IMG/VR virus record: IMGVR_UViG_3300041809_003506
Span: 1 to 58,592 of that record
Source: a virus
Taxonomy: Duplodnaviria > Caudoviricetes
Length of the DNA: 58,592 nucleotides
Direction: 5' to 3' (one strand)
A program made the translations under genes and the position numbers. Positions 17,674 through 38,407 of this stretch are shown here, piece by piece. Under the pieces are notes generated by a model. That model was not told the origin of the DNA, did no database searches, and worked only from the letters and a program-made list of their open reading frames with translations. Each line of letters opens with the position of its first letter. Within the stretch, counting starts at the first letter, position 1.

Positions 17674-18123
17674 TCAGCGCTGCCATTTGCTAAAGAATTT
17701 TACGTCGAGGATCGGAATGCCGAGATGCACGGAGGTACCGAAGCCGCGGCGCACACAGCGGGCGCCGAAATGAGCGTGAATGATCGACGGCCAGCCCGGC
17801 TTGACGATCAATGCAGCGTGAGAAAAACACTTTCCAGCCTTATACAAAACCACATCGCCGTGCTTGACATGCTCGAGCGGAATCTCGTGGGCAAATTTCC
17901 GCACCCAGCCGAGGTAACGCTCTTCCGATTGGTGAAGAAAAAACTGCGGTGAATAATAGCCGATCTCAAAAGGCTCGATCAGCCCGGCTTCCAGAAACAC
18001 GCATTTCAGAAGCGTGGCGCAATCAACTCCCGCGCCCTTGACCTCGCCATGATCGTGAAACGGCGTCCGCAGCCACGTCCGCGCGATCGCATCGACGCGG
18101 TCGCGTTCGGCTTCCTCGGTCAT
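17674..18123 (-). CDS. NlpC/P60 tail-associated peptidase
   Basis: ARTWLRTPFHDHG...GVDCA...GDVVLY...SHAAL...IIHA. Confidence 0.9.
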   Translation of the reverse strand: MTEEAERDRVDAIARTWLRTPFHDHGEVKGAGVDCATLLKCVFLEAGLIEPFEIGYYSPQFFLHQSEERYLGWVRKFAHEIPLEHVKHGDVVLYKAGKCFSHAALIVKPGWPSIIHAHFGARCVRRGFGTSVHLGIPILDVKFFSKWQR

Positions 18124-19088
18124 CCTTGCGACTCTGGCGGCGGAATCCAGGGCTGCCCGCCGTAATTAGGTTGATTGTTGAACAGACCGCATGTCGCGTA
18201 GAGCTTGTTGCAGCCCGGATAGACCGTGAATGGGTCGCCGGCGGCGATTGCAAACGGAAAGGGATTGAGCAGCGATAACGTTTGATTGCCATCCCAGCCA
18301 GAGATCGTGCGCTGGAATCCGGCGTTCAAGCCGCCGGTGAAGACAATGCGACCGAGTAGGTAGGTTCCTGATCCCAGAGGCACCGGGAAGTCGGTGCCGA
18401 CGATAACCGCTTGTGTCGAGCTGGAGCCAGCCGTTCCATTGATGGCAAAGCTCGCCGCATTCATGTTGCCGGATGCGTTGCACCCGACGTCAAACAGGGT
18501 ATGCCGGCACTGCGCTTCATAGAAGTGCAGCGGCATCTGGATGGTGAGCAGCGACCGATAATCGTTGACCGTGAGCACGGCCACGGCGTTCGTGGTGTCG
18601 ACCTCCGCGACAGTGCCGGCGAAGATGGTTCGGCATCCGACCGGCGAAGCGCCACCGGGCGGCATCGGCCACGTCGGCAATGCCGAGAAAAAGGCCTCGT
18701 CGACCTGAAAGTCCGCGGCGTCGAGAGCTCCGCCAGAGGCCGCCTGCAGCCAGGGCACCGAGCCGATGGTGTCGGGAAACGCCGCTCCGGTCACCAAATC
18801 GAACGGCCGCGGCATCAGCACCAGCACCCAGGTATCGGTATCGGTGCCGACTTTCAGATGCGCTTGGGTCTTGCTCTGTTTCTGATCGACCTTGATGCCG
18901 CCGGACGGATACCTATAGCCGTTGACCAACGTGCTTGTGGAATTCCCGACGATGTCGAAGTCGGCATCAGTGAAGCGGATTCGTCCGCCCTGAAACATCG
19001 TGATCGTGTAGAGCCTTGCAACATAGAATGGCGCGGCCGTCTCGACGATGTTATTGAACAGCGCGATCAGTGCCGGAGTTGTCGTCAT
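18120..19088 (-). CDS. Baseplate hub protein (DUF2163/BR0599-like)
   Basis: RFTDADFD, CRHTLFDVGC, GDPFTVYPGCNK...C...FNNQPNYGGQPWIP. Confidence 0.88.
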   Translation of the reverse strand: MTTTPALIALFNNIVETAAPFYVARLYTITMFQGGRIRFTDADFDIVGNSTSTLVNGYRYPSGGIKVDQKQSKTQAHLKVGTDTDTWVLVLMPRPFDLVTGAAFPDTIGSVPWLQAASGGALDAADFQVDEAFFSALPTWPMPPGGASPVGCRTIFAGTVAEVDTTNAVAVLTVNDYRSLLTIQMPLHFYEAQCRHTLFDVGCNASGNMNAASFAINGTAGSSSTQAVIVGTDFPVPLGSGTYLLGRIVFTGGLNAGFQRTISGWDGNQTLSLLNPFPFAIAAGDPFTVYPGCNKLYATCGLFNNQPNYGGQPWIPPPESQG

Positions 19089-19091
19089 GGC

Positions 19092-19703
19092 TCACGGCAA
19101 TTTTTCCGTCGAGAATTTCAGGCTTTTCACTTCAGCCAGCGTCGACATGAAGTTGGAGAATTCGATCGAGTCATCGTCGAAACGACACGGCCAGTAGAAA
19201 AACCCGGTCCACGTCAACGCCGCGCCGGATGCCGGTGCGCTCGAGAAATTCACCACGCCGTAAGGCGAGATCGATGCCGGCACTACAGGCGACCCGGCGA
19301 CGTTAATCGTCGGCGTGCCGTTGACCAGAAACACCGGCTCGGTAAAACCGCCGAGCGTGCGCACCAACTGAAACGCCGTGGTGACGCCGTCGCCGGTACC
19401 GAATTCCTGATTGGCAGCCGCGTTATCGTTCGGATCGCTATAGGCCCAGAGCTGCCCCGGCCCCTGCACCGAGTTGATGAAGCCGAGCAGCGCCTGCCAT
19501 TCCAAAGCGACAAGACCGCCGAGCGCGATCGTCGCGGAATTCAGCGCATTGATCGTCAGCTCATAACTGTAGGTCGGATAGCTGTAGAGCGGCACGCGGG
19601 TGCGTTTGCCCGACAGCGCATCCTGCTTGACGGTATTCCAATTCACCGGCCGTTTGACCGGCCAGCCCAGGGCCGACAGCGTCGGGAAAACGGGAAGTGC
19701 CAT
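19092..19703 (-). CDS. Distal tail protein (DUF2460-like)
   Basis: SGKRTR, FGTGDGVTTAFQLVR, WTGFFYWPCRFDDD. Confidence 0.85.
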   Translation of the reverse strand: MALPVFPTLSALGWPVKRPVNWNTVKQDALSGKRTRVPLYSYPTYSYELTINALNSATIALGGLVALEWQALLGFINSVQGPGQLWAYSDPNDNAAANQEFGTGDGVTTAFQLVRTLGGFTEPVFLVNGTPTINVAGSPVVPASISPYGVVNFSSAPASGAALTWTGFFYWPCRFDDDSIEFSNFMSTLAEVKSLKFSTEKLP

Positions 19704-24255: not shown

Positions 24256-24668
24256 CAGACGCCCTCCGCTTTGCCCGCAATAGCGCCCGCAACAATGCGA
24301 GTGCCAGGATCGACTTCAGTGATATTGAAAAGCTCCGTTCCAGGAACGAATGAGTCATCGACCATCGTCCCCGGAATGATCCGATCGTTCTTGCGCAGCG
24401 GCAACGGAAAGCGCTGCTCGGCAAGATCGGCCTGCAGCACGATGAACTCGCGCAAGCCCTCGCTGATTGCCCCAGACTTCGCACCCGATCCGATCGGCGC
24501 CGTCGGCTGATAGGCGCGGAACACCGCCAGCACGACAGCGTCCGTCGTTGCGACGTTCGGCGCCTGGCCGGAAACGCGGCGGAACAGTACCGCTTGCCCG
24601 GTGCGCGCCAGCATGCGCCGATAGGCCGCGACCGCGTTGCGGTCGGGAAGCGCCGGCGCGATGGTCAC
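24255..24668 (-). CDS. Head closure / joining protein
   Basis: Size and synteny downstream of the connector. Confidence 0.55.
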   Translation of the reverse strand: MTIAPALPDRNAVAAYRRMLARTGQAVLFRRVSGQAPNVATTDAVVLAVFRAYQPTAPIGSGAKSGAISEGLREFIVLQADLAEQRFPLPLRKNDRIIPGTMVDDSFVPGTELFNITEVDPGTRIVAGAIAGKAEGV

Positions 24669-25138
24669 CGCGCCACGCCGTTGACGGCGACCAAGGTCTG
24701 CCCGGCATAGGTGCCGGTCGAAACCACGCAGGCCTGCAAACGATCTCCGATCGGTCCGTTGAGCACCGTGTTATTCGACAAGGCAAGATTGCTCGGCGCC
24801 GTCGGCGTGGTGACGGAATTCAACCCCGACAGATTGACCAGCTCGACGCCGGATGAAGTCGTGAATTCGATATTGGCAATATCGAAGAAGCTCTGCCCCT
24901 GATCGACGCTCGTCTGGATGAAGACGTTGGTCTGCGTTCCGCCGGAACCGTAGGCAAAGCGCACCTGCAGGGTGACGGCATCGAGGCCTTGAAGGTTTAT
25001 AACCGGAACCGGCGAGCATTGCGTCCCGGCCGCGGCAACGATGAAGTTGCCGAGGTTAAAGGGACCGGGATTGTCCATCGCCAGCGCCGGCGCGAGCAAC
25101 GCGCAGAGCGCGAAAAGCAAAACTCCGATGCGGCGCAT
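24665..25138 (-). CDS. Virion-associated beta protein with signal peptide
   Basis: MRRIGVLLFALCALLAPALA/MDNPGP; FAYGSGG...IQTSVDQG..FFDIA. Confidence 0.7.
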   Translation of the reverse strand: MRRIGVLLFALCALLAPALAMDNPGPFNLGNFIVAAAGTQCSPVPVINLQGLDAVTLQVRFAYGSGGTQTNVFIQTSVDQGQSFFDIANIEFTTSSGVELVNLSGLNSVTTPTAPSNLALSNNTVLNGPIGDRLQACVVSTGTYAGQTLVAVNGVAR

Positions 25139-25142
25139 GTTA

Positions 25143-26201
25143 TTATCCAATCACCGGCATGCGATGCTGATCGATCATCGCGGCGATATCAGGCGGGAAC
25201 TGGCCATCGGAACCGGGCCCCGAGGCGAACCAATATTGCGTCTCCAGCGCGCCGACGACGTTCTCGGAACGGATCGAGGGATCGCGCAACCGCCCGTAGT
25301 AGCGCCGCTTGATCAATTGCTCGCAGGCGTCCTGCAGCTCGGGCGGCAGCGTTTCTTTGGTATAGCCCGCCCAATACTGCACGGCGATCGGCAGTGCCTC
25401 CCAGCGCCGCGGCATGCCGTCTGTGAAGTACCGGGTGAGCTGCGCCTTGCCTCGATCGGCGATGTAATCGACGCCCTCGATCAGATTGGTCGGCAGATTG
25501 TTATTGTCAGCATTCGGGACATTCACGGTCACCGAAATGAAGATCGGAAACGTCGGCGCCTGGCCTGCAGTCAAGAGCCCCGCGGCGGGCTCGGTCCATG
25601 ATGCATTCAGGCTGATCGGCGAGGCATTCTGCAGGATCTCCGTTCCTGCGCTCGTCGAGACATAGACGTTCCAGCCGATGGCAAGAGCGGCCGGATCCGG
25701 TTGCGGGTTATCGACCTGCAACAGGCTTCCTGCCGGCACTACGAGGTTCTGTTCTGTCGACGTCCCGGTCTCGCCGGTTGCCGTCACGAACGTCGTGCGC
25801 ACGAAGTAGTTTGTCCGTGCCAGAGATCCGCCGCCCACCGCAGCGATCGTCGATGGCAGCGGCGGCGCCGTGCCGGAGAGCGAAGGTGTGCCTCCGATCG
25901 GCCATTGCGAGAGCTGCAACGGTGCGAATCCCGAGGGCAGCTGCCACGGATAGGGATCGCGGAACGCCCAGAATTGCTCGAGATAGCCCTGCAGCTGGAA
26001 CGTGCGATTGCAGTGCCTTCGAATATCGGTCGAGACCCGCGTGATCGCCCGCTGCAGGAACTTATCAGCGGAACCATCCTTGATATCGAGATCGTCCTTG
26101 AGCGTCGGCAGATCGATCAGATCGTACAAACCGCCGCCCTGGAACAATCCCGCGGTCGGAACCGCGACCGACTCGATGATGGTAGGGCCGGGAGAGACCA
26201 T
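25143..26201 (-). CDS. Head-tail connector (gp6/gp15-like) with inserted FN3-like domain
   Basis: LIDLPTLKDDL...IRRHCNR and YWAGY...LPPELQDAC flanking a beta-rich insert. Confidence 0.75.
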   Translation of the reverse strand: MVSPGPTIIESVAVPTAGLFQGGGLYDLIDLPTLKDDLDIKDGSADKFLQRAITRVSTDIRRHCNRTFQLQGYLEQFWAFRDPYPWQLPSGFAPLQLSQWPIGGTPSLSGTAPPLPSTIAAVGGGSLARTNYFVRTTFVTATGETGTSTEQNLVVPAGSLLQVDNPQPDPAALAIGWNVYVSTSAGTEILQNASPISLNASWTEPAAGLLTAGQAPTFPIFISVTVNVPNADNNNLPTNLIEGVDYIADRGKAQLTRYFTDGMPRRWEALPIAVQYWAGYTKETLPPELQDACEQLIKRRYYGRLRDPSIRSENVVGALETQYWFASGPGSDGQFPPDIAAMIDQHRMPVIG

Positions 26202-26220: not shown

Positions 26221-26697
26221 TCAGGACGTCAGCTTCGTCCAGCGCACTAGCAGTTTGCCGCCGGTCGTCGCCGTGCCGCCGGTATTGTTGATGGTGTTAG
26301 CGCCGGTGATGGTGAATTGGCTGGTGAGATCGGAGATATCGGTCACCGCCGTACCGGCGCCGATGAAATACAGCACTTCGTCGAGCTCGTCGCCGACTTT
26401 GATCCCGGTCGCCGTAAAATTGCCCGCCGCGCCGCCAGCAAGCAAAATGTGTTTGGCGAAGCCGCCGCCGCCGATACCCGATCCGGCCACCACCGGCTGC
26501 ACCGCCGATGCCGCAGCTGCACCCTCGGCTGCCGTAGCAAAGGCCGATGATGCCTGAGTTGCCGCGGAGCCGAGCCCGAGAGCAGTCCGGGCCGCCCCCG
26601 CATTCCCTGCAAAAATATCGGCGACAGATGCGTCACTCGGCGTTTCGCCGCTGGCGCTGGTCTCACTGACAACGAGCTTAGTGTTGACATCGACCAT
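26221..26697 (-). CDS. Head-fibre or decoration-like protein
   Basis: AARTALGLGSAAT fibre motif; Gly/Ala/Thr rich. Confidence 0.6.
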   Translation of the reverse strand: MVDVNTKLVVSETSASGETPSDASVADIFAGNAGAARTALGLGSAATQASSAFATAAEGAAAASAVQPVVAGSGIGGGGFAKHILLAGGAAGNFTATGIKVGDELDEVLYFIGAGTAVTDISDLTSQFTITGANTINNTGGTATTGGKLLVRWTKLTS

Positions 26698-26710
26698 CTT
26701 AGCGGTCCCC

Positions 26711-27127
26711 TCAGTTATAGTTCGCCGAGATGAACGCCGTGTCGGTGCCGGTGGTGTAGGTGAAGGGCGATGACGCAGAGGTCACCAGGATGGTGATGCC
26801 CAGCGAAAACTCGATGCCGCCCGGCGAATAGTTGATCAAGCAGCCCGCGCCGCTGGTATCGAAATAGCAAGCATCGAGCACCAGCGCGCCGGTCAGCGAG
26901 CCGGTATTCGGCGCCGCGACGCCATTATACGCGATGCACCAGCCGGCTGCGCCGCCGACGACGCCGGTGCAATTGAAATACGCCAGGACATGCTGCGGCT
27001 TGGTCTCAACGACCAAGGAGGTTCCGAGCGAGAGGCTATTGGCATGCGAGAACAGCGCGGTCTGCGCCAGCGCCGCGCCGCAGAACAGAAACCACAGACC
27101 GACGATTGATCGGGCGATCAGCTTCAT
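26711..27127 (-). CDS. Virion-associated beta protein with signal peptide
   Basis: MKLIARSIVGLWFLFCGAALA/QT; 4 Cys in the mature part. Confidence 0.7.
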   Translation of the reverse strand: MKLIARSIVGLWFLFCGAALAQTALFSHANSLSLGTSLVVETKPQHVLAYFNCTGVVGGAAGWCIAYNGVAAPNTGSLTGALVLDACYFDTSGAGCLINYSPGGIEFSLGITILVTSASSPFTYTTGTDTAFISANYN

Positions 27128-27134
27128 GACCGGC

Positions 27135-27458
27135 TCATTTCTGTTCGCTAGTGTTTGCTTGCTCATTGCCGAGGATTTCGGCAAACGCGCTTTTAACCTC
27201 GGCGGTCTCAGCGCGAATGCGCTTGACGCCTTCCTTGCCGTTGGCGATCTCGGTCGCGAGCTCGGTCAGCGCGGCGGCGGAATCAAGTTTCAGATCGTCG
27301 ATCTGCTTTTTAAGATCAACGAGTCCCAGGCGCACCTGCGCCGCCAATGACTTGCCACCGATCTCCGGCATCTTTGCAACCTCGCGCGGCTTTGCACCGC
27401 CGAATTGGGCGATCGCCTCACTCAACATGCGATCGAGTTTTTCGCCCGCAGGCGTCAC
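27135..27458 (-). CDS. Coiled-coil hypothetical protein
   Basis: GTG start overlapping the upstream TGA. Confidence 0.55.
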   Translation of the reverse strand: MTPAGEKLDRMLSEAIAQFGGAKPREVAKMPEIGGKSLAAQVRLGLVDLKKQIDDLKLDSAAALTELATEIANGKEGVKRIRAETAEVKSAFAEILGNEQANTSEQK

Positions 27459-27646
27459 GTAGGGCGGACCGTCGCCGTCAAATGCGTCGCGACGGCGCTG
27501 GCCAGTGCCGCGACCACCGTCGGATCGGTTTTCAGATCCTCGAGGATCTGTTGCCGGATGCCATCGATCAATGTGCCGACGGTGATATCGAGCGCCGAGC
27601 CATGCGGATCGACGTACAGAAGCCGCATGTCGCGATCGAGCGGCAT
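27455..27646 (-). CDS. Small hypothetical protein
   Basis: Fills the operon gap; coupled. Confidence 0.5.
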   Translation of the reverse strand: MPLDRDMRLLYVDPHGSALDITVGTLIDGIRQQILEDLKTDPTVVAALASAVATHLTATVRPT

Positions 27647-27649
27647 CTG

Positions 27650-27874
27650 TTAGATCATCCGCGCCGCGGCTGCGCCCTTGAGCTTGCGGGCAGCCTTGGT
27701 CAGATAGGTCTGCGGCTTGTGCGCTTCGAGCGGAGGGGAAGGCTTGGCACCAGGCGGCCAATCCTCCGCCGAGACAACTTCGCCGCGCGCTGCGGCTGCC
27801 GCTGCGACATCATCCGGCACCAGCGCCGGATTGCCCATGCCTCGAAGCATGCGGTTGAAGGTTACAAGTTTCAT
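27650..27874 (-). CDS. Small hypothetical protein (74 aa)
   Basis: GGAGG SD; ATGA overlap with the glycosyltransferase stop. Confidence 0.55.
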   Translation of the reverse strand: MKLVTFNRMLRGMGNPALVPDDVAAAAAARGEVVSAEDWPPGAKPSPPLEAHKPQTYLTKAARKLKGAAAARMI

Positions 27875-29376
27875 TCTGCGGCCTCCAGGCGCTCGACCGG
27901 CGCCGGCAACATGGTTTCGGCGAGCGCGCCGGTCCATGCCTTGCTGCCGACATGCGACAGCACAATTTCCGGATCGACCCATATCGAACCGCCGAGCTCG
28001 CGCCAGCGCTGACAGAACACATAGTCCTCGCCCATCTCCCGCTGGTCGTCGGGATCGAAGCGGAAAAACTGATAGTAATTCGCCCTGATGTCGGCCGGCA
28101 TATTCGGCGGACCGTCGCGCTTCCAGTCCGGATGCGCGGCGATCAGTTGCTCGAACACGCAGCGCTCCACTTTCATGAACGCAGTGCCGACCGCAAACAC
28201 TTCCACGGCGCCCATGGAGTCCTGCGGCGGGAAACTCATGTCCTTGGCGACCTTGCGGTGCAGGCACCAGACTTCCGGATCGCTGTTCGGCTTGTCGACC
28301 TTCATGCGGCCGACACCGGCAATAACTTTCTGCTCGGAGGCCAATAAGCGCAGCAGCGCATCCGGATTCCAGCCCATGTCGTCGTCGATGAAGACAAGGT
28401 CGGTGCATCGCGACGCCAGGAACTTCGCCGCGATCTTGTTGCGGGCGGCGGGAAGGTTCGACGAGCCGATGATGAAATAGGTCTCGTATGCCATGCCGAG
28501 CTGCGTCAGCTTCACCAGCGTGTCGGCGAAGGCGACCGTGAACTCGAAGACCGGCTGCCGCGCCGTCGGCACACCGATCATCACGCGGCGCGAAACAGCG
28601 CGCTTGCGCCGCGCTTCCACGATCGGATCGGCTTTGGCAGCGACCTTCAATCGCGCCGGCTCATTGCGATGGCTCCTGATCTTCGCTGAGATGACCGCGC
28701 GATCACCCTGCAGCCAGGCGCGATAGATTTCCTCGTCGCCCTTCCACAGACCATTGTGTAGATCCGGCCCATGATGCTTCTGCGTGAAGCCTGCGCCATA
28801 GACATCCTGATGCGTCGCGTCGGGCTGGGCTTCGCCCTTCATGACGTGGGCGTGGCGCACCATCACGTCCATCAGTACGCGCCAGCAAGAGCTGTCGCGG
28901 CCGATCGTTTCCCAAAGATCGTCGACGAACAGATGATGCATGCCGGGCGCGAAGATATAGTCAACCGCTCGGATAAGCTCACCGGACATCACCCAGCAAT
29001 TGGCGACGCGGTTCGGCGCCAGCCAGCCGTCGTTGCAGGACACGATGCCGACGTTCCAGCCATCGAGCGCATCGACCAGGCGCCGATCCCAGGCGATCGT
29101 CTCGGGCACATTGTCGTCGCCGATCAGGCCGAGCCAACCGATGCCCTGCCTTGCCGTTTCCCAAATTTCGCGGATCTTGTCGCCTTGGGTCACACCAATG
29201 GTCTTGATGATCCGCCAATCGTGCGGCAGCTCGAGCGCGTCGTAAGCTTGCCGATGGCGCTCGTAGTCCTTGGCATCGATCAGAAGGAGGCCGGGCGTCG
29301 ACAGGCCGGTCGATCGGCAGGCGTCGAAGAAACGCTCGAGATGACCAGGACGGTCTTTACTAGGCAGCAGCCACAT
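27871..29376 (-). CDS. Two-domain GT-A fold glycosyltransferase
   Basis: Domain 1: LLPSKDRP...LIGDD...FVDD...H. Domain 2: IGVPT...ARNK...FIDDD...GEDYVFCQRW...HVG. Confidence 0.85.
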   Translation of the reverse strand: MWLLPSKDRPGHLERFFDACRSTGLSTPGLLLIDAKDYERHRQAYDALELPHDWRIIKTIGVTQGDKIREIWETARQGIGWLGLIGDDNVPETIAWDRRLVDALDGWNVGIVSCNDGWLAPNRVANCWVMSGELIRAVDYIFAPGMHHLFVDDLWETIGRDSSCWRVLMDVMVRHAHVMKGEAQPDATHQDVYGAGFTQKHHGPDLHNGLWKGDEEIYRAWLQGDRAVISAKIRSHRNEPARLKVAAKADPIVEARRKRAVSRRVMIGVPTARQPVFEFTVAFADTLVKLTQLGMAYETYFIIGSSNLPAARNKIAAKFLASRCTDLVFIDDDMGWNPDALLRLLASEQKVIAGVGRMKVDKPNSDPEVWCLHRKVAKDMSFPPQDSMGAVEVFAVGTAFMKVERCVFEQLIAAHPDWKRDGPPNMPADIRANYYQFFRFDPDDQREMGEDYVFCQRWRELGGSIWVDPEIVLSHVGSKAWTGALAETMLPAPVERLEAAE

Positions 29377-30580
29377 AGGCGCGCTCTCCGTTCAACAACT
29401 TGCGCGTCATGGCGCGCACATCGGCATCGGCCGCAAGCTTGATGACGCCGGCGGCCGGATAATCGAGCCGCGCCTCGTCGATGATGTAGCCGCGATAACG
29501 CTTGGCTGGCTCGATCTCGTGATCGCCGAAGCTCTGCAGATAGCCGCGATCGATTCCGTCGCAAACGTGCATGGCCTGGCAGCCGCGGCACTTCTCCGGA
29601 AACACCTTGCCGGATCCAGCCCGCGCCGCGAACAACTCGATATTGCCGACGCGCTCTTTCAGATCGCGCAGCGGAAATTGCGTTTGTGTATCCTTCAGTG
29701 GCCAGGGCTTGCCCATCTCGCGCATCGAGGAAGACGTTGCCGCAACCGGATCGGCCGTATGGTCGATCTGATTCATCCACTCGTGGGTATCGTGGCGGAC
29801 GCCGACAACGCCGACGTGATTGCGTTCCATGCCGGCGATCATGCACTGCGGCGCGTAGCGGACGGTGCACGCGATGCCCGCAGCTTCAACGGTTGCCACC
29901 GCCTCGCGCAGATAGCCGGCGATCTCCGTGTAGCTCACCCGATGATCGCCGCTGTGTGTCGGCCGCGACCATTGATAGTAGGGCATGAAGAACAGGAACG
30001 TCGTCGCGTAGACTTCCGGACGCGCCGCGATCCACTTGGCGATCTCCGGCAGATATTTGTAATTCTGCTCGGTGATCGTCGTGTTGGTGATGTATTGGAA
30101 GCCGCGACGCTGCAGCGCGTCCATCGCCGCGACCAGAAGCGAGAGCTCGCCGCCGGTCATGGCCTTGAACATCGCCGCGTCGGTCGAATGCAGCGAGAAC
30201 CGAAAATCAACAAGTCCAGCCTCGAGCAGCCGCTCGAGCAGATTGCGCCGCGTGAGGAACTGGCCGAGCGTGATGATGCGCGAGGCAAGCCCGCGCGACG
30301 TTGCATACGCTATCAGATCGACGATATGCGGAAACGCGCCAGGCTCGCCGCCAGTCACATCGAAGCCGAGAAAGCCGTGCTCGGCTAATGAATCGACCAG
30401 CGCCCGCAGATTATCGATGCCATGCCACTTGGCGTGGCGCATGCCGGTGAACTGATCTTCCGTGTCGCCAAGATATGAGTAGAAGCAATGGCGGCATGAA
30501 TGCGTGCATTTGAGGCCCACATCCACGACGCCCCACCGGGACAGCCGGCCTGGCGCGTGGATGTGGAGTCCTTCAAACAC
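29360..30580 (-). CDS. Radical SAM enzyme with C-terminal auxiliary Cys cluster
   Basis: CTHSCRHC (CxxxCxxC), TGGEP, FSLH, and C-terminal CRGC-x5-CDG. Confidence 0.9.
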   Translation of the reverse strand: MFEGLHIHAPGRLSRWGVVDVGLKCTHSCRHCFYSYLGDTEDQFTGMRHAKWHGIDNLRALVDSLAEHGFLGFDVTGGEPGAFPHIVDLIAYATSRGLASRIITLGQFLTRRNLLERLLEAGLVDFRFSLHSTDAAMFKAMTGGELSLLVAAMDALQRRGFQYITNTTITEQNYKYLPEIAKWIAARPEVYATTFLFFMPYYQWSRPTHSGDHRVSYTEIAGYLREAVATVEAAGIACTVRYAPQCMIAGMERNHVGVVGVRHDTHEWMNQIDHTADPVAATSSSMREMGKPWPLKDTQTQFPLRDLKERVGNIELFAARAGSGKVFPEKCRGCQAMHVCDGIDRGYLQSFGDHEIEPAKRYRGYIIDEARLDYPAAGVIKLAADADVRAMTRKLLNGERAYVAAA

Positions 30581-30593
30581 GATCGTTACGCTA

Positions 30594-31115
30594 TCAGACC
30601 GCAGGCGCCGCGAGCTGGTCGAAGCCGCCCACTACCATGCCGACCGCACGGATCTGCCCGGTATCGGTTCCGGTTGCCGACAAATGCGGCACCCCGAGAT
30701 AACGCAGATACCGCGCCGCCGCGCCGAGATTGATGCCGGGGCCCGGCGACGGATTGTCGGCCGTGGTCTGCACCGTCATCCGGTGCACGCCGTTGACCGC
30801 GCCGCCGCCGGAAGGTCCGGTAGCGAGCGTGGCCTGCTCCGAAGCGTAGGGCGTCCACGTCGAATTGTCCGGCGAGCTGTCGATCTCGGAATAGAGCGTG
30901 AGCGTCTTTCCCGAGGCCAGCGTCGCCGACCAATAGATTTCGACATCCATCGACCGCGGCATAGAGCCGGTGGCAAAACCTTCGCGATCGACCGAGGTCG
31001 ACGTGAAGGTGACGGAGTCCGAACCGCCGCCGGCGGTCCACGGATAATCGGGGGCCGCGATCGACGCGACGTCGATCAAGGCGCCGATGTTTTTCTGTTG
31101 GACGATGTCGCCCAT
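30594..31115 (-). CDS. Capsid decoration / cement protein candidate
   Basis: Directly after MCP; AGGAGA SD; beta-rich, ARYLR motif. Confidence 0.6.
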   Translation of the reverse strand: MGDIVQQKNIGALIDVASIAAPDYPWTAGGGSDSVTFTSTSVDREGFATGSMPRSMDVEIYWSATLASGKTLTLYSEIDSSPDNSTWTPYASEQATLATGPSGGGAVNGVHRMTVQTTADNPSPGPGINLGAAARYLRYLGVPHLSATGTDTGQIRAVGMVVGGFDQLAAPAV

Positions 31116-31151
31116 GAAAGTATCTCCTAGCGAGAGGGGAATGGGGGTGAA

Positions 31152-31176
31152 GGGTGCCGGGGGTTAACCGGCACCC
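31152..31176 (-). promoter_or_regulatory. Stem-loop after the major capsid gene
   Basis: GGGTGCCGG-7 nt-CCGGCACCC perfect 9-bp stem; weak U tract. Confidence 0.55.
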
Positions 31177-31195
31177 GAGCTCACGGTTAGGACAC

Positions 31196-32689
31196 TTAGG
31201 TCAGCGCCGGCGCCCAGATCACGCCCTGGTCGACCGCGACCGACGGCAGATGCCGCATCTGGAAATCGTGCTCGGCGATGGCGCGCACGATGGTCTGATC
31301 CTTCTGGAACGCGGACTGCAGCGCGCCAGTCGTATCGTAGTAGGTGCCCTCGCGAGAGATCGCGAGTTCCAGCGTCATCGAGTCGAGGATCATGGCGTCG
31401 TCCATTTCCACCAGGAAGATGAACGTGCAGATCTTCTGCGCCGCATTGGTATCCCACAGGTTGATCGGGATCTGCGTCGACTTCGAGAACGGGTATCCGA
31501 GCAACGTGCCGCGGCTCAGCTCGTCGCGATATACATAGACGCCGAGCGAGTTGAGCAGGTTGTTCAGATAGTTGAAGATCCGCGGATGGAAGAACCAACG
31601 CCGGCGGATATCCGGCACGTTGGCGGTATCGAGCTTGTTGACCAAACCGGCCAGCTCGTTCGCCACCGTTGTGAGCGTGTTGGTCTCGTTCGACGTGATG
31701 AAGTTGCCACCGACCGCATAGGTCGAGTCCGCGGTCGCCGACCAGACGCCGACAGTGCCAGCCTGGTTCGCAACATAGTTGTTGGCGAAGCCAAGAAAGC
31801 CCTTCGGGGTATCGAGCGTGCCGTCGCCGGTGATGAAGGCGAGATCCTCACGCAGCGCGATCACCTTCACCAGGTCGTCGCGCACGAAGGCATCGGCGGC
31901 CGGATCGGCGAAGCGCATCAGGTCGTTGGAGACCGGAACCAAGGCGGTCAGTTTCTTATAGGTCGCAACGATCTGACCGACCTGTTGCTGCGAGGCGTTG
32001 ATCTGCGCGTTTTCCCCGCCGTAGGTCGCGGTCGCCGCGGCCGTCTGTGCCGGGAGCGTCATCGTGCCGCGCGGCATCGGCATGGTGCGCGGGTTTGCAC
32101 TGCGCACGACCGCACGCGGCCGCAAGAGCTCGATGATCTCATTGACGTACTCGGGCGGCACGATGAAGCCGCCGGAAGCGCCGATGCCGGCCGCCAATGC
32201 CTTGGCGATCTGCACCGTGACCGGATGATTCTCGCCATAGGCCTGCTTCGATGCCGCGAGCGCATTGAACGGCGAACCGCCGCCCATCAACAGCGCCTTG
32301 GCGAAGCCACCGACGATCAGACCCTTGTTGGTCATGAGGCCGCGCGCTTTGGCAGCTTCCTCACTGGTATAGGGATCCTTGTTGACGGTGGCGGAAACGC
32401 TGCGTTGCGTTTCCTCCTGGCCGGCAACCGGGACTGCGGTGCGGCGCTCCGCGTCCTGCAGATCGACGGCGCGCTGGATCTCGGCGTCAAACTCTTCGGT
32501 CGTCGCCTTGATCAGAATGTCGACGTCCTCGAGCACTTTCTTGCAGCGATCGAATTCGGCCTGATCGACGGACTTCTTGAAGTCCCTCTTCTCGGCAATG
32601 GCCTTGAAGGCATCGAAGGCGGTTTTGCGCTTGCCGGCGAGCTCGTCGAGCTTCGCCTGTTTGGCTGCGCGCAGGGCTGCGATTTTCAT
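31196..32689 (-). CDS. Major capsid protein, HK97 fold, with delta domain
   Basis: GGFIVPPE, VSNDLM, EDLAFITGDG, LLGYP, RAIAEHDF; GGAGA SD before MKIAAL. Confidence 0.93.
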   Translation of the reverse strand: MKIAALRAAKQAKLDELAGKRKTAFDAFKAIAEKRDFKKSVDQAEFDRCKKVLEDVDILIKATTEEFDAEIQRAVDLQDAERRTAVPVAGQEETQRSVSATVNKDPYTSEEAAKARGLMTNKGLIVGGFAKALLMGGGSPFNALAASKQAYGENHPVTVQIAKALAAGIGASGGFIVPPEYVNEIIELLRPRAVVRSANPRTMPMPRGTMTLPAQTAAATATYGGENAQINASQQQVGQIVATYKKLTALVPVSNDLMRFADPAADAFVRDDLVKVIALREDLAFITGDGTLDTPKGFLGFANNYVANQAGTVGVWSATADSTYAVGGNFITSNETNTLTTVANELAGLVNKLDTANVPDIRRRWFFHPRIFNYLNNLLNSLGVYVYRDELSRGTLLGYPFSKSTQIPINLWDTNAAQKICTFIFLVEMDDAMILDSMTLELAISREGTYYDTTGALQSAFQKDQTIVRAIAEHDFQMRHLPSVAVDQGVIWAPALT

Positions 32690-32808
32690 TTCGATATCTC
32701 CGAAAGAGTTGAGTGAATGCGCCTCACGGGTCGGGCGTGTCGCGATGCGACGCGCTCGGCGCGGCGAAAACCCCGGCGTGTCACCGGGCAAAAAGCTGGA
32801 ACGGAAAG

Positions 32809-34782
32809 TCAGGCGGCGCTGGTCGCCATCAGTTCGACCTGGCGCTTACGCTGCTCGGCCTCGAAGGCGAGCTCGTTGTCGGCATTGGCCGGATCGGGAT
32901 CTTGCTCGGCATCGGCAGCGGGCTTCGCTGATTTCACCATCGCCTCGGCGTGCTCGCCGGCGGACGTGCCGTGATCTTGCCACTCGACCAGCTGATCGTG
33001 CAGATCGTCGTGGAGGTCCGCGGCCTTCTGATAGCAATCGGCCATCTTGCCGAAGCACTTCTGCATCTCGGCTAGGTGATTCATGTTCGCTTCGGAGAGC
33101 ACGCGGCCGGCCTTGCGGAAGGCGGCGCGCAGATTCTTGGCCTGCGGCGTGGCCGCGGCTTCGACGTAAACAACGTCGACGACAAGCGGATCGACCCGGC
33201 CGGCCAAAAGCTCGGCAGTTTCCTCCTGCGTCATTGCCACGAGAGCATCAGCGCAGAGCTTCATCACAGCGGCGAGCATGGCCGGCAGCTTGGAATCGTC
33301 GCCCTCGGCCTCCGCTTCCCACTTCGCCATGTCCTGGATGAAGCCGAGATCATTGAGCACGCGGGCAAGCTCCGCGCAATGATAGAGCCCCTTGATCTTT
33401 GCTTTGCCGTTGGCGCCGAGAATGATGGTCTTGGTACGCGGCGCGTTGCCGCCCTTCCCGTCGCCGTCTTTCATTTTCGCCTCATAATGATCGATGACGG
33501 CGCGCGCCTTCTTGGCGACGTCGTCGGGAATGTCGGTTTGCGGCAGCCGCGACGCGGCGTTGCGAATGCCGGCGGCGATCGCGACCAGCCGGCCGTCCTT
33601 CACCGTGGCAAAGGGCAGCTTGTACGATCCCTTGAGCTTCGGGTTGGCCGCGTCATAGACCAGGAAACCCTTGCGCGCGAACGTGGTGTCGGGCTTGTCG
33701 CCGTCGAAGTTGGCGTGCTCGAAGATCGCGGCCTTGGCCGCGGCGCCGTCCCAGCTCGAGTCCTCGTCGATCGACAGATTGCGCGAGGCACCGACTTTCC
33801 ATTCGTGCTTGTCGGCCTTGTTTGTTTGCTCGGCAGACAGCGCACGTTGAATCACGGTCGCCGCCGGATTGGCAGGGACGCTGACGCAAGAGATCTCCAT
33901 CAGTTCCCATTTCTCGTAACGCAGGCCGCCATCCTTGATCGGCTTGACGTCGATCGGATCGAAGCCGACCGAGACCGCGCTCATGACGCCGCACTTATAG
34001 AGCCCGCAATATTCGTCAGCCTTGACGGAAATTCCCTTCGGCGCGAATTCGATCAGCGCCTCGAGGCGGCCGTTCTGTATCGTCGGCACCGCGCGTCCGA
34101 TCGGATGATCGGCGTCGTGATTGGCCAACACGATCGGATTCGATTTGTAGTTATCGAGCACGCAGCCTTCCGGCACCATAACGTCCTTAACACGATCGAC
34201 CGTCGGATCGCTGGCGACGACGCGGATCTGCCGCTCGCCCAACGTCGCGTCGGCGACGACGGCGCCCTGCAGGAACTTACGGACTGCTGTCATCCGAAAC
34301 CCCTTGTTGTCCTCGATGATCGCTTCGAGCGCGGCCTTGTCGTCGTCATCAACAAATACCCGCTTATCGATATCGGCGGGGACGCTCGTCATCGCCTCGT
34401 CGGCGACTTCGCGGACGTAGGCTTCGATTTCCTCTTGGTATGCTTGCCAGTCGCCACCGAGCTCTTCAACGCGGCGTTTCTCGCAAGGATTGCCGCAGCT
34501 TTGGTGCGCTTCGTCATAAACCTTGCCCTCGTTCATCCCGAGCCATTCGCCGAGCTCGTGGTAGGGCAGCGTTAGGCCGGTATTGATCTGCGTCTTCGGC
34601 AGGATGACCGGAACGCACTCGTCGATAAAAACAACGCGGCCGTCGATCGAACGATTGGCCAGCCATGGGATGGTGTGATCGCGATCGACGCGAGCGGCAT
34701 CAACCAGGTCCGTCACCCGGCGGTAGAAGTCATCGTCGATCACCGGAACATCGTTCCGGTCGGCATGGTGACCAGCGGACAT
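32809..34782 (-). CDS. HK97-family prohead protease with extra N- and C-terminal domains
   Basis: VDRVKD, NPIVLANHD, SVGF, ELMEISCVSVPANPAA; internal SD plus ATG at 34293. Confidence 0.88.
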   Translation of the reverse strand: MSAGHHADRNDVPVIDDDFYRRVTDLVDAARVDRDHTIPWLANRSIDGRVVFIDECVPVILPKTQINTGLTLPYHELGEWLGMNEGKVYDEAHQSCGNPCEKRRVEELGGDWQAYQEEIEAYVREVADEAMTSVPADIDKRVFVDDDDKAALEAIIEDNKGFRMTAVRKFLQGAVVADATLGERQIRVVASDPTVDRVKDVMVPEGCVLDNYKSNPIVLANHDADHPIGRAVPTIQNGRLEALIEFAPKGISVKADEYCGLYKCGVMSAVSVGFDPIDVKPIKDGGLRYEKWELMEISCVSVPANPAATVIQRALSAEQTNKADKHEWKVGASRNLSIDEDSSWDGAAAKAAIFEHANFDGDKPDTTFARKGFLVYDAANPKLKGSYKLPFATVKDGRLVAIAAGIRNAASRLPQTDIPDDVAKKARAVIDHYEAKMKDGDGKGGNAPRTKTIILGANGKAKIKGLYHCAELARVLNDLGFIQDMAKWEAEAEGDDSKLPAMLAAVMKLCADALVAMTQEETAELLAGRVDPLVVDVVYVEAAATPQAKNLRAAFRKAGRVLSEANMNHLAEMQKCFGKMADCYQKAADLHDDLHDQLVEWQDHGTSAGEHAEAMVKSAKPAADAEQDPDPANADNELAFEAEQRKRQVELMATSAA

Positions 34783-34783: not shown

Positions 34784-36229
34784 TCAGGCGGCTTCTTGCG
34801 AAGCGGAGCCGTTCAGACTTTTCGGATCGACCGGCGGCATGGTGAATCTCATTTCCGTTGCCGCAGTTTTTTCGCCTTCGCCTTCCTCGTCCGCGGCAAG
34901 CGGCTTGGCCGGCGCTATGCTCGGCCCCGGCAATGTTCCCGCTTCCGGCCGTCCCGCGCCATCCGGCGCGCCGCCGGTCTTGTCCGAGCCGACCGCCGCG
35001 ATATTGCTCGGCTGATAGAGCACGTCGCCGGCAGGTCCAATAGATGGCAGGCCTTCACCGGCACGGACCTCGTTGATGGTGAGAAAGCTGGCACCACCGA
35101 GTCCGATGCGATTGTTGGCAAACCGCGTCTTCGTGGCAGATCGCAACAGCGCCCGTTCGTCGAATGACACCATGAGATTCTGCGCCGGCAGATCGAACGT
35201 GTCGCCGAATTTCTCTTCCAGCCGCGTCAAGTCCGGCATAATGGTGCCGGACACGTAGTCGTTGTTGATCTCTTCGATATCAATGCCGCGGATTTCAGTG
35301 GCACCGATCTTGAAGGGAGGCACCCGGAAGAACCGCGTGATGTCGGTGACCGAGAAATTCCGCTGCGCCATGAACTCGAGATCGACCGAGGTGAGCTGCA
35401 GCTCCTTGGCCTCGAGGCCATCCTCGAGCACAACCGTGTTGCCGGTATTCTCGATGCCGGACTTGAAGGTATCCCAGGCCTGCTTCAGACGATCCGCCGC
35501 GGCTTTGGTCAGCGCCTTCTTCGATTGCAGCACCACGCTCGGCCGCGAGCCGTTCTTCATCCAGCGGGCGGTCTGCTGCTCGAGTCCCATGGCGACGCCG
35601 ACCGCATCGCGGGCGACGCCGATGGTAGAGAGCGCAACCAGCGCATTGAACGTCAGGCCGCGCAGATAGAACATATCCTCGCTGGCGATCGCCGGCGGGA
35701 ATTCCCGCAGCATGGCGATCTGCCAAAGCCCGAGCCGGTTGACGTTGTAGAAGATCTCGCCGTTCCAGGATTCCAGCACCAGGACCGCGTCGGGATTGAT
35801 CGGGATGAGCTCGTTGACGATCTTGCGCTTGCTGTTGCGCTTGATGGCGGCATAGCCGCCGCCGCGCAGCAGATAGGCGACCATCATCTGCTCGATGAAC
35901 TCGAACCAATCTTGTTGCCGGTTTGGCTTCTTGAACAGTTCGACCAGGTCGTGCTCGGTCACTTGCTCGCGCGTGCCGCTTTTCGGCTTCTCGTAGTAGA
36001 GCCGAGGCTTACAGCGCGCCACGTCCTGCGCGCGGATGGTCACGCAGGCATAGACCGCGGCGACCGACATCGCCGTGCCCTGGCTGATCAACAGCCCGGT
36101 AGCGGACGGCGTCGCACCCAGCGTCGGCAGAAAACCGCCGCCGCCCTGGTTGGCGGAGGGCGCGCCGGCTGCCGCGTCTTTGGCAACCAGCACGGATCCG
36201 GCGGCGCGGAGGCGGGAGACTAGACCCAT
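34784..36229 (-). CDS. Portal protein, HK97 family
   Basis: AVYACV, KPN, ITRFFRVPP, TINEVRAGEGLP. Confidence 0.93.
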   Translation of the reverse strand: MGLVSRLRAAGSVLVAKDAAAGAPSANQGGGGFLPTLGATPSATGLLISQGTAMSVAAVYACVTIRAQDVARCKPRLYYEKPKSGTREQVTEHDLVELFKKPNRQQDWFEFIEQMMVAYLLRGGGYAAIKRNSKRKIVNELIPINPDAVLVLESWNGEIFYNVNRLGLWQIAMLREFPPAIASEDMFYLRGLTFNALVALSTIGVARDAVGVAMGLEQQTARWMKNGSRPSVVLQSKKALTKAAADRLKQAWDTFKSGIENTGNTVVLEDGLEAKELQLTSVDLEFMAQRNFSVTDITRFFRVPPFKIGATEIRGIDIEEINNDYVSGTIMPDLTRLEEKFGDTFDLPAQNLMVSFDERALLRSATKTRFANNRIGLGGASFLTINEVRAGEGLPSIGPAGDVLYQPSNIAAVGSDKTGGAPDGAGRPEAGTLPGPSIAPAKPLAADEEGEGEKTAATEMRFTMPPVDPKSLNGSASQEAA

Positions 36230-37935
36230 CAGATCACCAGGAAGCCGCCGGACCGCTCTTGCGAGTCATAGACCGATTTCGCGTTTTTCGGTTCCGGATT
36301 GCGCACCATCACCGTCGCGGCATCAAACAACGCCATGACCGGATCGATCTTGGCATCGCCGGCGTTCTGTTTGGTGGCGCGGATCGCCGTCGCCAACGGC
36401 TCGATCTTGACGTTCTCGACGCACCAATTCATCAGCCGGCTCGGCGCGTGCAAGAAAGTCCCGTTGGCGAGCTTGCGCTCGGCTGTCTTGATCGCCGACA
36501 TCAGCTTATAGCCCTGACCGACGCCGACAATCTGCTCGCTTTCCTCGTTGATGCCGATTCCGTCGAGGGCGTCGACAAATTCGCCAAAGGGCCCCTCGGC
36601 ATCGAGCGCCACACAGCCGAGCAGCCCGGCATCGTTGATCTGCGCGATGATCTCAATAATCGCGCTGACGTCCTCGAGCTTGTCGCCGACGATGGTCAGT
36701 TCGCCGTCGGCGGCGAAGCCCTCGAGTGCCGCGGCGATGGTCTGCCGGCGCTGTAGCACGCCCTTATGGCACCAGGCGTGCGACCAGCTCAACCAGCGCT
36801 TGGTTTCCTTTTCGCGGCCCAGAATCGTCAAGCCGAACAGATCGTCGAGGCCACCGCCATCGATGCCGGCCACGATCACTTCGCAGCGCTCGAGCAGAGC
36901 GTCGAGCGCCAGCGTCGGATCTTCCGACTCGAGCCAAAACTCGGCGCCGGGCCAGCGGTCAGTTTTCAGTCCGATGCCGATCTCGATGTTGAGGTGATTT
37001 GATGCCCAGACGCGGATCGCGTGGTCGCCCTTCGCCCGCTCGGTTTGCCAATCGGCCGACAAGCTCCCAAGATGCACGGATCTTCCCAAATTCGGCATCA
37101 CCATCGGCCAATTCGAAGGATCCTGCCAGCGCGCGGGATCCTTGGCGATCGCCAACGGCAATTCGTAGATAATCGGCAGCATCGGGCGGATGTTTTGTCC
37201 GCGGAACCGGCCGTCGCGGATCTTCCGCGCCATCATCAGTTCGTCACGAAAGGCGCCGGCGGGAATGTCGTCGCTCTGCGTGGTGATGATGAGAAGCATG
37301 CCTTCCGGCGTCTTCTCCAGGCCGCCCCTGATCTGGCGCAGCACCTTGCCGGTGTGCGGGTTGCGGCCGAGCAGGTGCAGCTCGTCGACCAGCGCCAGGA
37401 TGAGGATGGTGCCGGTCAGGATGTTGACGTCGAACGTCTTGACCTTGAGCTCCGACTTGGTGACCAGGTCTTCGATGGTCTTGACGTGGTCGCGGGTGCG
37501 GAAGCGGCGCTTGAGGTCGGCCGAGGCCTCCACCATGCCGACCGCCTTGTCGTAAGCGTTATCGGCGATCGCCTGCGTCGGGCCGACGAACAGCGCCTCC
37601 GCCCGCGGGCGTTTGTTCATCAGCATGGCCGCCAGCAGCAGGCCGGCGCTGTAGGTTGTTTTCGACTGCCCCTTCGGTAGCATCGCGAAGATGTCGCGGA
37701 CGTAGCGCAGCTGCGCGGCCGAATCCCATGAGCCGAAGGCGACACGGACGATGTCGCGGAACCATTGCCCGGCGCCATCGCGCATCTTGGGCAGACCGGG
37801 AACGTCGGGAAGCTGCAGCTCGTCGAAAAATGCCAGCCCGAGCTTGGCCTCGGATTCAACCAGCGGCAGATCGGGGATAAGCGATCGTCCCTCCCGGATG
37901 CGATCTTCCCAATCCGGACAGCTGAGATCCCACAT
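36229..37935 (-). CDS. terL: Terminase large subunit
   Basis: LPKGQSKTT Walker A, LVDELH Walker B, ITTQSD, GIDGGGLDDL, KIDPVMA. Confidence 0.95.
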   Translation of the reverse strand: MWDLSCPDWEDRIREGRSLIPDLPLVESEAKLGLAFFDELQLPDVPGLPKMRDGAGQWFRDIVRVAFGSWDSAAQLRYVRDIFAMLPKGQSKTTYSAGLLLAAMLMNKRPRAEALFVGPTQAIADNAYDKAVGMVEASADLKRRFRTRDHVKTIEDLVTKSELKVKTFDVNILTGTILILALVDELHLLGRNPHTGKVLRQIRGGLEKTPEGMLLIITTQSDDIPAGAFRDELMMARKIRDGRFRGQNIRPMLPIIYELPLAIAKDPARWQDPSNWPMVMPNLGRSVHLGSLSADWQTERAKGDHAIRVWASNHLNIEIGIGLKTDRWPGAEFWLESEDPTLALDALLERCEVIVAGIDGGGLDDLFGLTILGREKETKRWLSWSHAWCHKGVLQRRQTIAAALEGFAADGELTIVGDKLEDVSAIIEIIAQINDAGLLGCVALDAEGPFGEFVDALDGIGINEESEQIVGVGQGYKLMSAIKTAERKLANGTFLHAPSRLMNWCVENVKIEPLATAIRATKQNAGDAKIDPVMALFDAATVMVRNPEPKNAKSVYDSQERSGGFLVI

Positions 37936-37936
37936 C

Positions 37937-38407
37937 TCAATTCGTCGGCTGGCCCTGGCGCTCCGCCATAAGGCTGCCGAGCGTCGATCCGGCGTCAGGC
38001 ATCCGCGCATCGCGAGCCGCCTGGTCCTTCTTCCCGAGCTTGGGTTCCTTCGGCTTCGGCGGCTCGGTCTGGCCGTACACCATCAGATCGTTCTGCTCGA
38101 GCAGCGCCCGGAATTCCTTGCCGGCGGCGACGTTGCCCGCCATGAACAGCGACCAAAGCTGCGTCGCGAGCTCGGCGTTGAGCCGATCGCGGGCGACATC
38201 GCGAAATTTGAGCTCGGAAAAATAATGCTTGCGCAGCGTCGGCAGCGTGACGAAGATTGCGTCGGCAATCCGCTTGTTGCTCCAGCCGAGCGCCACTAAC
38301 ATGCTGACGCGATTCCGGTTTTTCTGACTGGCGATGTGCTCGGGGCGGCCGCGCTGGCCCCAATTGGCGGGGACCGGGTCGCCGAACAGGTCCAAAATTT
38401 CAGTCAT
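37937..38407 (-). CDS. terS: Terminase small subunit
   Basis: GRPEH, HTH ...TLRKHYFSEL, GNVAA, KLGKK; upstream of terL. Confidence 0.85.
   Translation of the reverse strand: MTEILDLFGDPVPANWGQRGRPEHIASQKNRNRVSMLVALGWSNKRIADAIFVTLPTLRKHYFSELKFRDVARDRLNAELATQLWSLFMAGNVAAGKEFRALLEQNDLMVYGQTEPPKPKEPKLGKKDQAARDARMPDAGSTLGSLMAERQGQPTN

Follow-up and report, generated by a model that had tools for sequence, protein, structure and literature searches.

Glycan coats on phage particles alter antibody recognition, and possibly stability and adsorption; to our knowledge, they have been demonstrated in only a few actinobacteriophages, and we know of no virus on which a glycan dependent on a radical S-adenosylmethionine (rSAM) enzyme has been described. 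The closest described systems are those of the mycobacteriophages Che8 and Rita, whose capsids are glycosylated by phage-encoded glycosyltransferases (GTs) (Freeman et al. 2023, cited through PMC11256854), and the same source places the GT genes of phage Maravista near the 3' end of the genome. Here, we set beside these systems a locus from IMG/VR record IMGVR_UViG_3300041809_003506, a virus of the Caudoviricetes (Duplodnaviria), in which an rSAM enzyme and a two-domain GT are encoded side by side inside the head operon. The 58,592 bases that we refer to as the window are the complete virus record, with tRNA-Pro at one end and an integrase at the other.

As PMC11256854 describes them, the mycobacteriophage systems share with this locus the use of phage GTs in a temperate siphovirus, and the glycan coat on abundant virion proteins that is described there is proposed here from the genes. 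They differ from it in host, which here is Gram-negative and probably alphaproteobacterial, and in GT, which here is a tandem GT-A enzyme outside the Pfam families; in addition, an rSAM enzyme belongs to this cassette, and the genes lie inside the head operon rather than near the 3' end as in Maravista (PMC11256854). The rSAM component, the GT family, and the host group are what is new with respect to known phage virion glycosylation. The literature that we searched holds no description of an rSAM enzyme in phage virion glycosylation, nor of bacterial fusions of rSAM with a family GT2 glycosyltransferase in flagellin islands, and PMC10783043 and PMC12801897 mention phage rSAM genes that are unrelated.

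With moderate confidence, we favor the reading that the pair works late in infection and in the cytoplasm, decorating virion proteins with a glycan that the rSAM enzyme tailors, because the rSAM family accompanies GTs and the phage pair sits beside genes for abundant virion proteins. A preliminary description, made from the sequence without database searches, had named the major capsid protein (MCP), rSAM, and GT-A/GT-A genes and had the two enzyme genes overlapping ahead of the neck genes; all are found in those places, on the minus strand, with an rSAM/GT overlap of 17 nt (29360-29376) upstream of the head-tail adaptor. The genes concerned are the following (aa, amino acids):

31196-32791, minus strand: MCP, HK97 type, candidate acceptor (PF05065, E 2.5e-38; phrog_10, E 3.4e-47)
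30594-31115, minus strand: 173-aa Bbp16-like jellyroll protein, probable capsid cement or decoration protein, candidate acceptor (Atlas features and structure)
29360-30580, minus strand: rSAM enzyme with one predicted auxiliary Cys4 site, twitch-like (PF04055)
27871-29376, minus strand: 501-aa tandem GT-A/GT-A glycosyltransferase, as modeled (PHROG, AlphaFold2, Foldseek)
28663-29376, minus strand: N-terminal GT-A domain of the GT, aa 1-238 (phrog_14945, glycosyltransferase, E 7.8e-19)
27871-28602, minus strand: C-terminal GT-A domain of the GT (GT_C), aa 259-501, stop codon included (phrog_1574, E 3.7e-22)

The radical SAM enzyme and the tandem glycosyltransferase

Both enzymes are encoded by real genes rather than chance open reading frames (ORFs), since homologues are many: at least 200 for the rSAM enzyme (E down to 1e-266) and 120 for the GT (E down to 0). 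The rSAM enzyme scores 57.3 bits against PF04055, for which the cut-off is 29.5, and carries Cys25, Cys29, and Cys32 in a CX3CX2C arrangement together with Cys246, Cys331, Cys334, and Cys340. None of the seven cysteines varies among the 61 phage and bacterial homologues compared, which bears out the CxxxCxxC and auxiliary cysteine motifs of the preliminary description, and the GGE motif (Gly78, Glu79) is invariant as well. Of the SPASM and twitch classes named there, twitch is the more likely one. SPASM domains have a seven-cysteine motif that includes CX2CX5CX3C and serves two auxiliary clusters, whereas twitch-type enzymes (BtrN, MoaA, BlsE) have a shortened C-terminal domain and a single auxiliary [4Fe-4S] cluster. 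In the phage family, the final cysteine position of CX2CX5CX3C is Asp in 53 of the 61 homologues, the PF13186 SPASM profile gives no match at E 0.01, the threshold of our Pfam scan, and only four extra cysteines are invariant; a single auxiliary cluster is accordingly the most likely, which makes the enzyme twitch-like and not a full SPASM protein.

Among solved structures found by sequence, BlsE and PqqE are the best matches to the rSAM enzyme, BlsE at E 2.7e-5 with the single sequence and 5e-10 with a profile. BlsE (7vob/7voc), the cytosylglucuronate decarboxylase of blasticidin S biosynthesis, is likewise an rSAM enzyme and acts on a nucleoside-carried sugar, but the phage protein is 16-23% identical to it, and neither substrate nor reaction is transferable. 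Aligned with VIA-align, the AlphaFold2 model (pLDDT 87.5, pTM 0.89) has BlsE (7vob) as its top structural match (Z 19.6, rmsd 3.6, 265 residues, spanning 12-381), with viperin, SuiB, and GDGT-MAS within ~1 Z of it, and Foldseek matched only the common rSAM core (TMq <=0.49). In NCBIfam, the enzyme lies far below threshold to NirJ2, AhbD, MoaA, PqqE, and BlsE, scoring 30.1 bits against the BlsE equivalog TIGR04466, where the cut-off is 400. Deposited cultured phages hold no close homologue, only those of the Campylobacter CP220 type matching, at 23% identity.

The 501-aa GT falls into no Pfam (E 0.01) or NCBIfam family, and the CAZy GT2/PF00535 profile does not match it. Its two halves are recognized separately, aa 3-191 by phrog_14945 (glycosyltransferase) and aa 259-481 by phrog_1574 (function unassigned there). 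The AlphaFold2 model (pLDDT 90.8) consists of two alpha/beta domains on either side of a disordered linker at 240-248, and a Foldseek search of the PDB at E <= 0.001 returned 237 matches with GT-A enzymes at their head, the top ones (LH3, PmHS2, COLGALT1, mimivirus R699, LARGE1, and K4CP; E 9e-12 to 3e-8) being enzymes with two GT-A-type domains; a viral structure library gave the same fold picture. Foldseek also matches the C-terminal domain to the single-domain viral GT-A protein STIV A197 (TMt 0.63) and to WrtF. Across 32 homologues, the N-terminal half has an invariant Asp87 with Asp88 (GDD), His148, and Asp152, and the C-terminal half has invariant Asp331 and Asp333 (DDD), Asp451, and His475. 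The model and these acidic motifs in both halves confirm the GT-A/GT-A fusion first proposed; both domains are plausibly active, judging by their conserved residues.

Human LH3 and COLGALT1, PmHS2 of Pasteurella, K4CP of E. coli, LARGE1, and R699 likewise have two GT-A-like domains per chain, with a DxD-type motif in each domain of the phage protein, but the phage GT is 9-11% identical to them, and its whole-chain TM of 0.2-0.3 means that the domain arrangement differs. Searching solved structures by sequence gave nothing usable for the GT (best E 0.56 alone, 0.28 as a profile), and none of 74 deposited phage records covers 80% of it.

Bacterial relatives and the phage cassette

The rSAM family extends to bacteria, where we collected 50 loci with homologues at 33-46% identity. 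In 22 of the 50, a GT2 domain is fused to the rSAM domain in the same open frame; in another 21 it lies within 3 kb of the rSAM gene, in one elsewhere in the locus, and in six it was not found. Fusions from flagellin-linked glycosylation islands (for example L025/L156, L055, and L040, as we number the loci) belong to the same rSAM family as the phage enzyme, with 36-46% identity and all seven cysteines invariant. Their partners are several GTs and methyltransferases, and the gene for a polymeric surface protein lies alongside. They differ from the phage system in that the phage rSAM enzyme stands alone and its partner comes from a different, Pfam-less GT-A family; the GT2 domain of the bacterial fusions has no match in the phage loci at 1e-5.

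Ten bacterial loci were picked for annotation, and in the nine that were scanned (all but L020) giant proteins join rSAM with GT2, GT4, GT41, tetratricopeptide repeat (TPR), and methyltransferase domains, adjoined by FkbM methyltransferases, sugar epimerase/dehydratases, and more rSAM genes. By tblastn, flagellin genes lie inside the retrieved stretch of five loci, and a sixth flagellin-linked locus, L025 on a Nitrospiraceae contig, has its flagellin 1.9 kb past the retrieved stretch; among five whole genomes checked for this linkage, flagellin adjoins the locus in only one. L025 presents a same-strand run of PilZ/YcgR, methyltransferase, rSAM-multiGT, GT9, GT, GT9, a 188-aa protein, flagellin, and FlaG, an arrangement characteristic of flagellin glycosylation islands. 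In a quick maximum-likelihood tree of 58 rows (without the near-copies L002, L004, and L006 and without short or interrupted matches), ten phage rSAM enzymes form one clade (SH-aLRT 98) nested in a GT2-fused clade (SH-aLRT 95) that contains all six flagellin-linked loci.

In many bacterial loci (L038, L044, L045, L047, L050, L052, L053, L056, L058, L064, and others), a paralogue of the rSAM gene, 23-27% identical, lies 1-3 kb from it, and some also have B12-binding rSAM genes, which suggests that radical tailoring in these islands takes several steps.

Among phages, a profile search recovered true homologues of the rSAM enzyme, at 43-68% identity, on 12 viral contigs and on one contig of a genome bin. 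L001, L002, and L004 are near-copies, as are L005 and L006, so that the 13 loci stand for ~8 distinct lineages. Failure of the pair to be conserved next to capsid genes had been set beforehand as the observation that would speak against a virion role; instead, the order MCP, 173-aa protein, rSAM recurs in 11 of the 13 loci, with the 173-aa gene between the other two in all 11, and the double GT comes after the rSAM gene in 12, the thirteenth contig stopping at the rSAM gene. In L007, the pair lies between the tail tube and tail assembly chaperone genes, and in four phage loci an FkbM-family methyltransferase gene stands between the rSAM and GT genes.

That methyltransferase, together with bacterial homologues that are fused or adjacent to GT2 and in some cases lie beside flagellin, supports a glycan-building role: judged by its gene neighborhoods, the rSAM family is a glycosylation-pathway enzyme. 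The unusual glycan or cross-link of the preliminary description thus keeps its first half (GT2 fusions, FkbM, flagellin neighbors), and there is no sign of a protein cross-link. The same evidence bears on the possibility that the rSAM enzyme is a peptide maturase of the sactipeptide, SuiB, or PqqE type, cross-linking or otherwise altering the capsid protein or a small neighbor while the GT acts independently. The enzyme does resemble PqqE, SuiB, and SkfB in sequence and fold, and small ORFs of unknown function adjoin the cassette (27650-27874, 26711-27184, and 26221-26697), but its motif begins at residue 25, leaving no room for an N-terminal peptide-recognition domain, a full SPASM motif is lacking, the small ORFs are not conserved with the pair, and the family has a glycosyltransferase as its constant partner, in many cases fused to it. 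We regard a maturase as highly improbable.

The slot itself is variable within the capsid family, L078 and L082 having the double GT without an rSAM gene and L079 and L081 having GT_C only, and in L080 a GT_C gene comes just before a 246-aa tail-block gene (tail246; its only match is a PHROG family of unknown function). The GT_C family has at least 597 related stretches in viral contigs. From 80 returned, 13 long loci were chosen and annotated for context, and eight of them have GT_C among the structural genes, in most cases immediately behind the capsid gene, including loci with podovirus-type capsids (L083, L100, and L120); a deposited podovirus record has the coat-then-GT order too. For one of the 13, the context is unclear.

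In the window, the cassette is tightly embedded in the operon. The rSAM gene follows the 173-aa gene at a distance of 13 nt, and at the other end the GT stop codon overlaps the start of a 74-aa ORF (ATGA), with GGAGG 8 nt upstream. No promoter-like site was found, terminator-like sites do not exceed the background (9, where 6.3 +/- 2.7 are expected), with none on the minus strand of 27871-31196, and the GC content of the cassette is that of its flanks. Because of the tight gaps and overlaps, the lack of promoter-like sites and of a terminator excess, and the unchanged GC content, the cassette is not a moron. The overlaps also account for the Ala-rich conserved C-termini of the two enzymes, which we considered as a capsid-targeting tag and rejected: the rSAM tail is the other frame of the conserved GT N-terminus, and the GT tail encodes the GGAGG ribosome-binding site and the ATGA start of the next ORF.

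Candidate acceptors and the proposed pathway

Embedding in the head operon has to be weighed against the thought that the pair makes or modifies a glycan carried by a host acceptor outside the virion, such as a lipid-linked envelope precursor, an exopolysaccharide, or a surface protein such as flagellin, so as to block superinfection late in infection or to stop progeny from re-adsorbing to debris. The bacterial homologues do belong to cellular glycosylation islands, the tandem GT-A fold matches PmHS2, K4CP, and LARGE1, which are polysaccharide co-polymerases, and one deposited relative is labeled 'polysaccharide biosynthesis'. Against this, neither enzyme has a membrane-type segment, the maximum 19-residue hydropathy (KD19) being 1.23 for the rSAM enzyme and 1.19 for the GT, with no hydrophobic stretch typical of a membrane helix, and both can therefore be expected to work in the cytoplasm, the site of virion assembly. 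No flippase, polymerase, or Gtr-type membrane partner appears among the 57 window ORFs of the Pfam scan (15 + 42; outside 22-36 kb, ORFs of 90 aa or more), and the genes are coupled into the head operon, not placed near the integrase or attachment site. GtrABC-type seroconversion modules have a membrane-bound GT and a flippase, their own expression in the lysogen, and a location near the attachment site; here, hydropathy is low, the genes are in a late head operon, and they lie ~27 kb from either end of the record. Finally, the position of the pair tracks capsid or tail-tube genes across phage lineages. Taken together, we judge a host glycan unlikely, though it is an alternative to keep in mind.

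The candidate virion acceptors include the 173-aa protein, for which the preliminary description had proposed a decoration function. It has no Pfam (E 0.01, PF21190 included), PHROG, or NCBIfam match. By features, the Atlas groups it with viral proteins resembling Bbp16 (score 0.96) and, by structure, matches it at TM 0.75/0.85 to a 1003-member cluster, 39% of which carry PF21190; over all clusters that match it, the share with PF21190 is 14-39%, and its gene sits after the capsid gene. Bbp16 is the jellyroll cement protein of Bordetella phage BPP-1. Like BPP-1, the window combines a protein after the capsid gene that resembles Bbp16 models (PF21190) with a BPP-1-like retroelement; unlike Bbp16, the 173-aa protein does not match PF21190 at the scan threshold, and its cement role is one that we infer. 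The Bbp16-like structure makes the decoration or cement assignment a supported lead rather than a proven identity. Ser and Thr make up 20-21% of the 173-aa protein (20%), two small neighbors, and the 246-aa tail protein, compared with 7-12% of the enzymes.

Returning to virion glycosylation, we infer the acceptor, the sugar, the rSAM reaction, and the activity of both GT domains, with virion proteins proposed as acceptors from gene position, and we envisage the pathway as follows:

(i) The cassette would be transcribed with the head genes late in infection.

(ii) The soluble tandem GT-A enzyme would move sugars onto an abundant virion protein in the cytoplasm, the likeliest acceptor being the Bbp16-like cement protein or the MCP, and in some relatives the tail tube.

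(iii) The rSAM enzyme, with its SAM cluster and one auxiliary Fe-S cluster, would carry out an oxygen-independent radical tailoring of the sugar, on either the nucleotide-sugar donor or the attached glycan; candidate reactions are decarboxylation, oxidation, epimerization, and dehydration.

(iv) In four relatives, the FkbM-type methyltransferase may add a further step.

Several observations weigh against this pathway. Neither in this phage nor in a relative is there a virion protein with direct evidence of modification, and gene position is only suggestive as evidence for a virion acceptor. In L009, an rSAM-GT2 fusion and a shorter double GT lie near DnaB/primase and not near head genes; four of the 13 chosen GT_C loci (the T4-like L110, L123, and L145, and L152) are found among replication and nucleotide-metabolism genes; and in Streptomyces phages, genes related to the N-terminal GT domain neighbor those for ThyX, RNR, and a nucleotidyltransferase, in a region of nucleotide metabolism. 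On the bacterial side, the GT2 match is short (~90-130 aa) in 12 of the 21 loci that have it within 3 kb, flagellin is nearby in only six of the 50 loci, and the tree comes from a quick search with midpoint rooting. The closest solved relative of the rSAM enzyme is 16% identical, with Z within ~1 of unrelated rSAM enzymes, and its reaction is for that reason not readable from homology. A TET-associated DNA glycosyltransferase stands at rank 47 of the viral fold matches of the GT, and the fold thus leaves DNA possible as an acceptor.

The last point leads to phage DNA hypermodification, in which the GT would glycosylate a modified base and the rSAM enzyme would tailor the appended group. GT-A enzymes do glycosylate DNA in some phages, rSAM enzymes take part in thymidine hypermodification in others, and the replication-module settings of GT_C in T4-like contigs and of the L009 fusion fit such a role. 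DNA glycosylation systems such as the T4 glucosyltransferases and the TET-associated GTs depend on a companion, dCMP/dUMP hydroxymethylase or TET/JBP, that supplies the hydroxymethylated base. The 57 scanned ORFs, however, include no gene of the hydroxymethylase, TET/JBP, base kinase, or 7-deazaguanine kind, and what they do offer is an MT-A70 methyltransferase and a DUF5131 protein; the rSAM relatives fused to GT2, GT4, GT41, and TPR and lying beside flagellin point to a protein or polysaccharide setting; and the pair is in a late head operon. The preliminary description had already found DNA the poorer fit, and with none of these genes among the scanned ORFs we consider it very unlikely.

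If virion glycosylation is right, the trait extends to phages of Gram-negative soil and freshwater bacteria with a twitch-like rSAM enzyme as a new ingredient, and phage capsid decoration becomes linked to the uncharacterized rSAM-GT fusions of bacterial flagellin-glycosylation islands. Capsid glycosylation may be far commoner than the literature suggests, because GT_C occurs in at least 597 viral stretches, often just after the capsid gene, and the cement protein, the rSAM enzyme, and the GT would make a compact three-protein test bed for the reaction of the rSAM family. More speculatively, environmental alphaproteobacterial phages may have taken over the rSAM core of bacterial flagellin-glycosylation islands and clothed their heads, and in some relatives the tail tube too, with a glycan tailored by radical chemistry that needs no oxygen, possibly a repeating-disaccharide, capsule-like polymer on the cement protein. 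The product could be such a polymer because the GT is built like the co-polymerases that add two sugars alternately (heparosan, chondroitin, and matriglycan synthases); we offer this extended scenario as a tentative one, itself unlikely to hold in full.

Neighboring genes and host

The remaining genes of the late block are arranged in the following order, with further neck and tail genes running 3' of the head-tail adaptor on the minus strand:

36229-38010, minus strand: large terminase
34784-36229, minus strand: portal
32809-34782, minus strand: S78 protease/scaffold
27650-27874, minus strand: 74-aa ORF coupled to the GT gene (sequence reading)
27135-27761, 26711-27184, and 26221-26697, minus strand: small ORFs 3' of the GT gene
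25143-26201, minus strand: head-tail adaptor (neck), downstream limit of the head block (phrog_442, E 2.8e-15; PF05135, E 1.5e-4)
24665-25150, minus strand: 161-aa jellyroll protein with a hydrophobic N-terminus (tblastn, Atlas structure, hydropathy)

The 74-aa ORF belongs to no Pfam family, and its relatives, in L008 (E 4e-6) and in L010 (E 0.004), are weak. The three small ORFs that follow were considered as substrate peptides and rejected; with no relatives in the related loci, they lie outside the conserved module. The 161-aa protein has tblastn matches in nine related loci, where it comes directly after the GT gene; in the Atlas it matches viral clusters at TM 0.80/0.93 and, more weakly, Bbp16- and carbohydrate-binding-module (CBM)-like folds, and its maximum KD19 is 2.22 at residue 8. 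The 157-, 158-, and 161-aa head-module proteins (26221-27184 and 24665-25150 of the window) are all rich in Ser and Thr (16-21%), and two of them start with a signal-peptide-like hydrophobic stretch (KD19 1.93 and 2.22), which is unusual for virion proteins.

Two of the phage settings are of interest in their own right. Positions 7950-15125 of L009 encode the rSAM-GT2 fusion (660 aa), then a 1016-aa protein with a LAGLIDADG intein, and then the shorter double GT. In L110, L123, and L145, all of low GC content and T4-like, GT_C (phrog_1574, E ~1e-63 to 1e-66) lies between SbcCD/peptide deformylase and sliding clamp/clamp loader genes, a setting unlike the capsid-adjacent one and compatible with a non-virion substrate.

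The phage is temperate and its host likely alphaproteobacterial. The tail-tip genes on the minus strand of window positions 14151-19703 (DUF2460, BR0599/phiJL001 gp84, NlpC/P60, and Rcc01698-like) are of the gene-transfer-agent type. Tail genes of these families are characteristic of phages and gene transfer agents of Alphaproteobacteria and so fit such a host; the nearest related genome-bin locus (L016) bears the label Alphaproteobacteria.

In the early region, the gene for the MT-A70 DNA methyltransferase (47561-48931) adjoins that of the DUF5131 protein (46401-47564, E 3e-96) on the minus strand, the two being the sole DNA-modification candidates noticed in the record. The retroelement is a diversity-generating one at 51227-53878 on the minus strand, distant from the tail genes, and comprises a reverse transcriptase (51227-52585, PF00078), the accessory protein bAvd (52549-52935, PF22296, E 2.7e-26), and, as its target, a protein resembling Mtd (52964-53878, with a weak match to PF21916).

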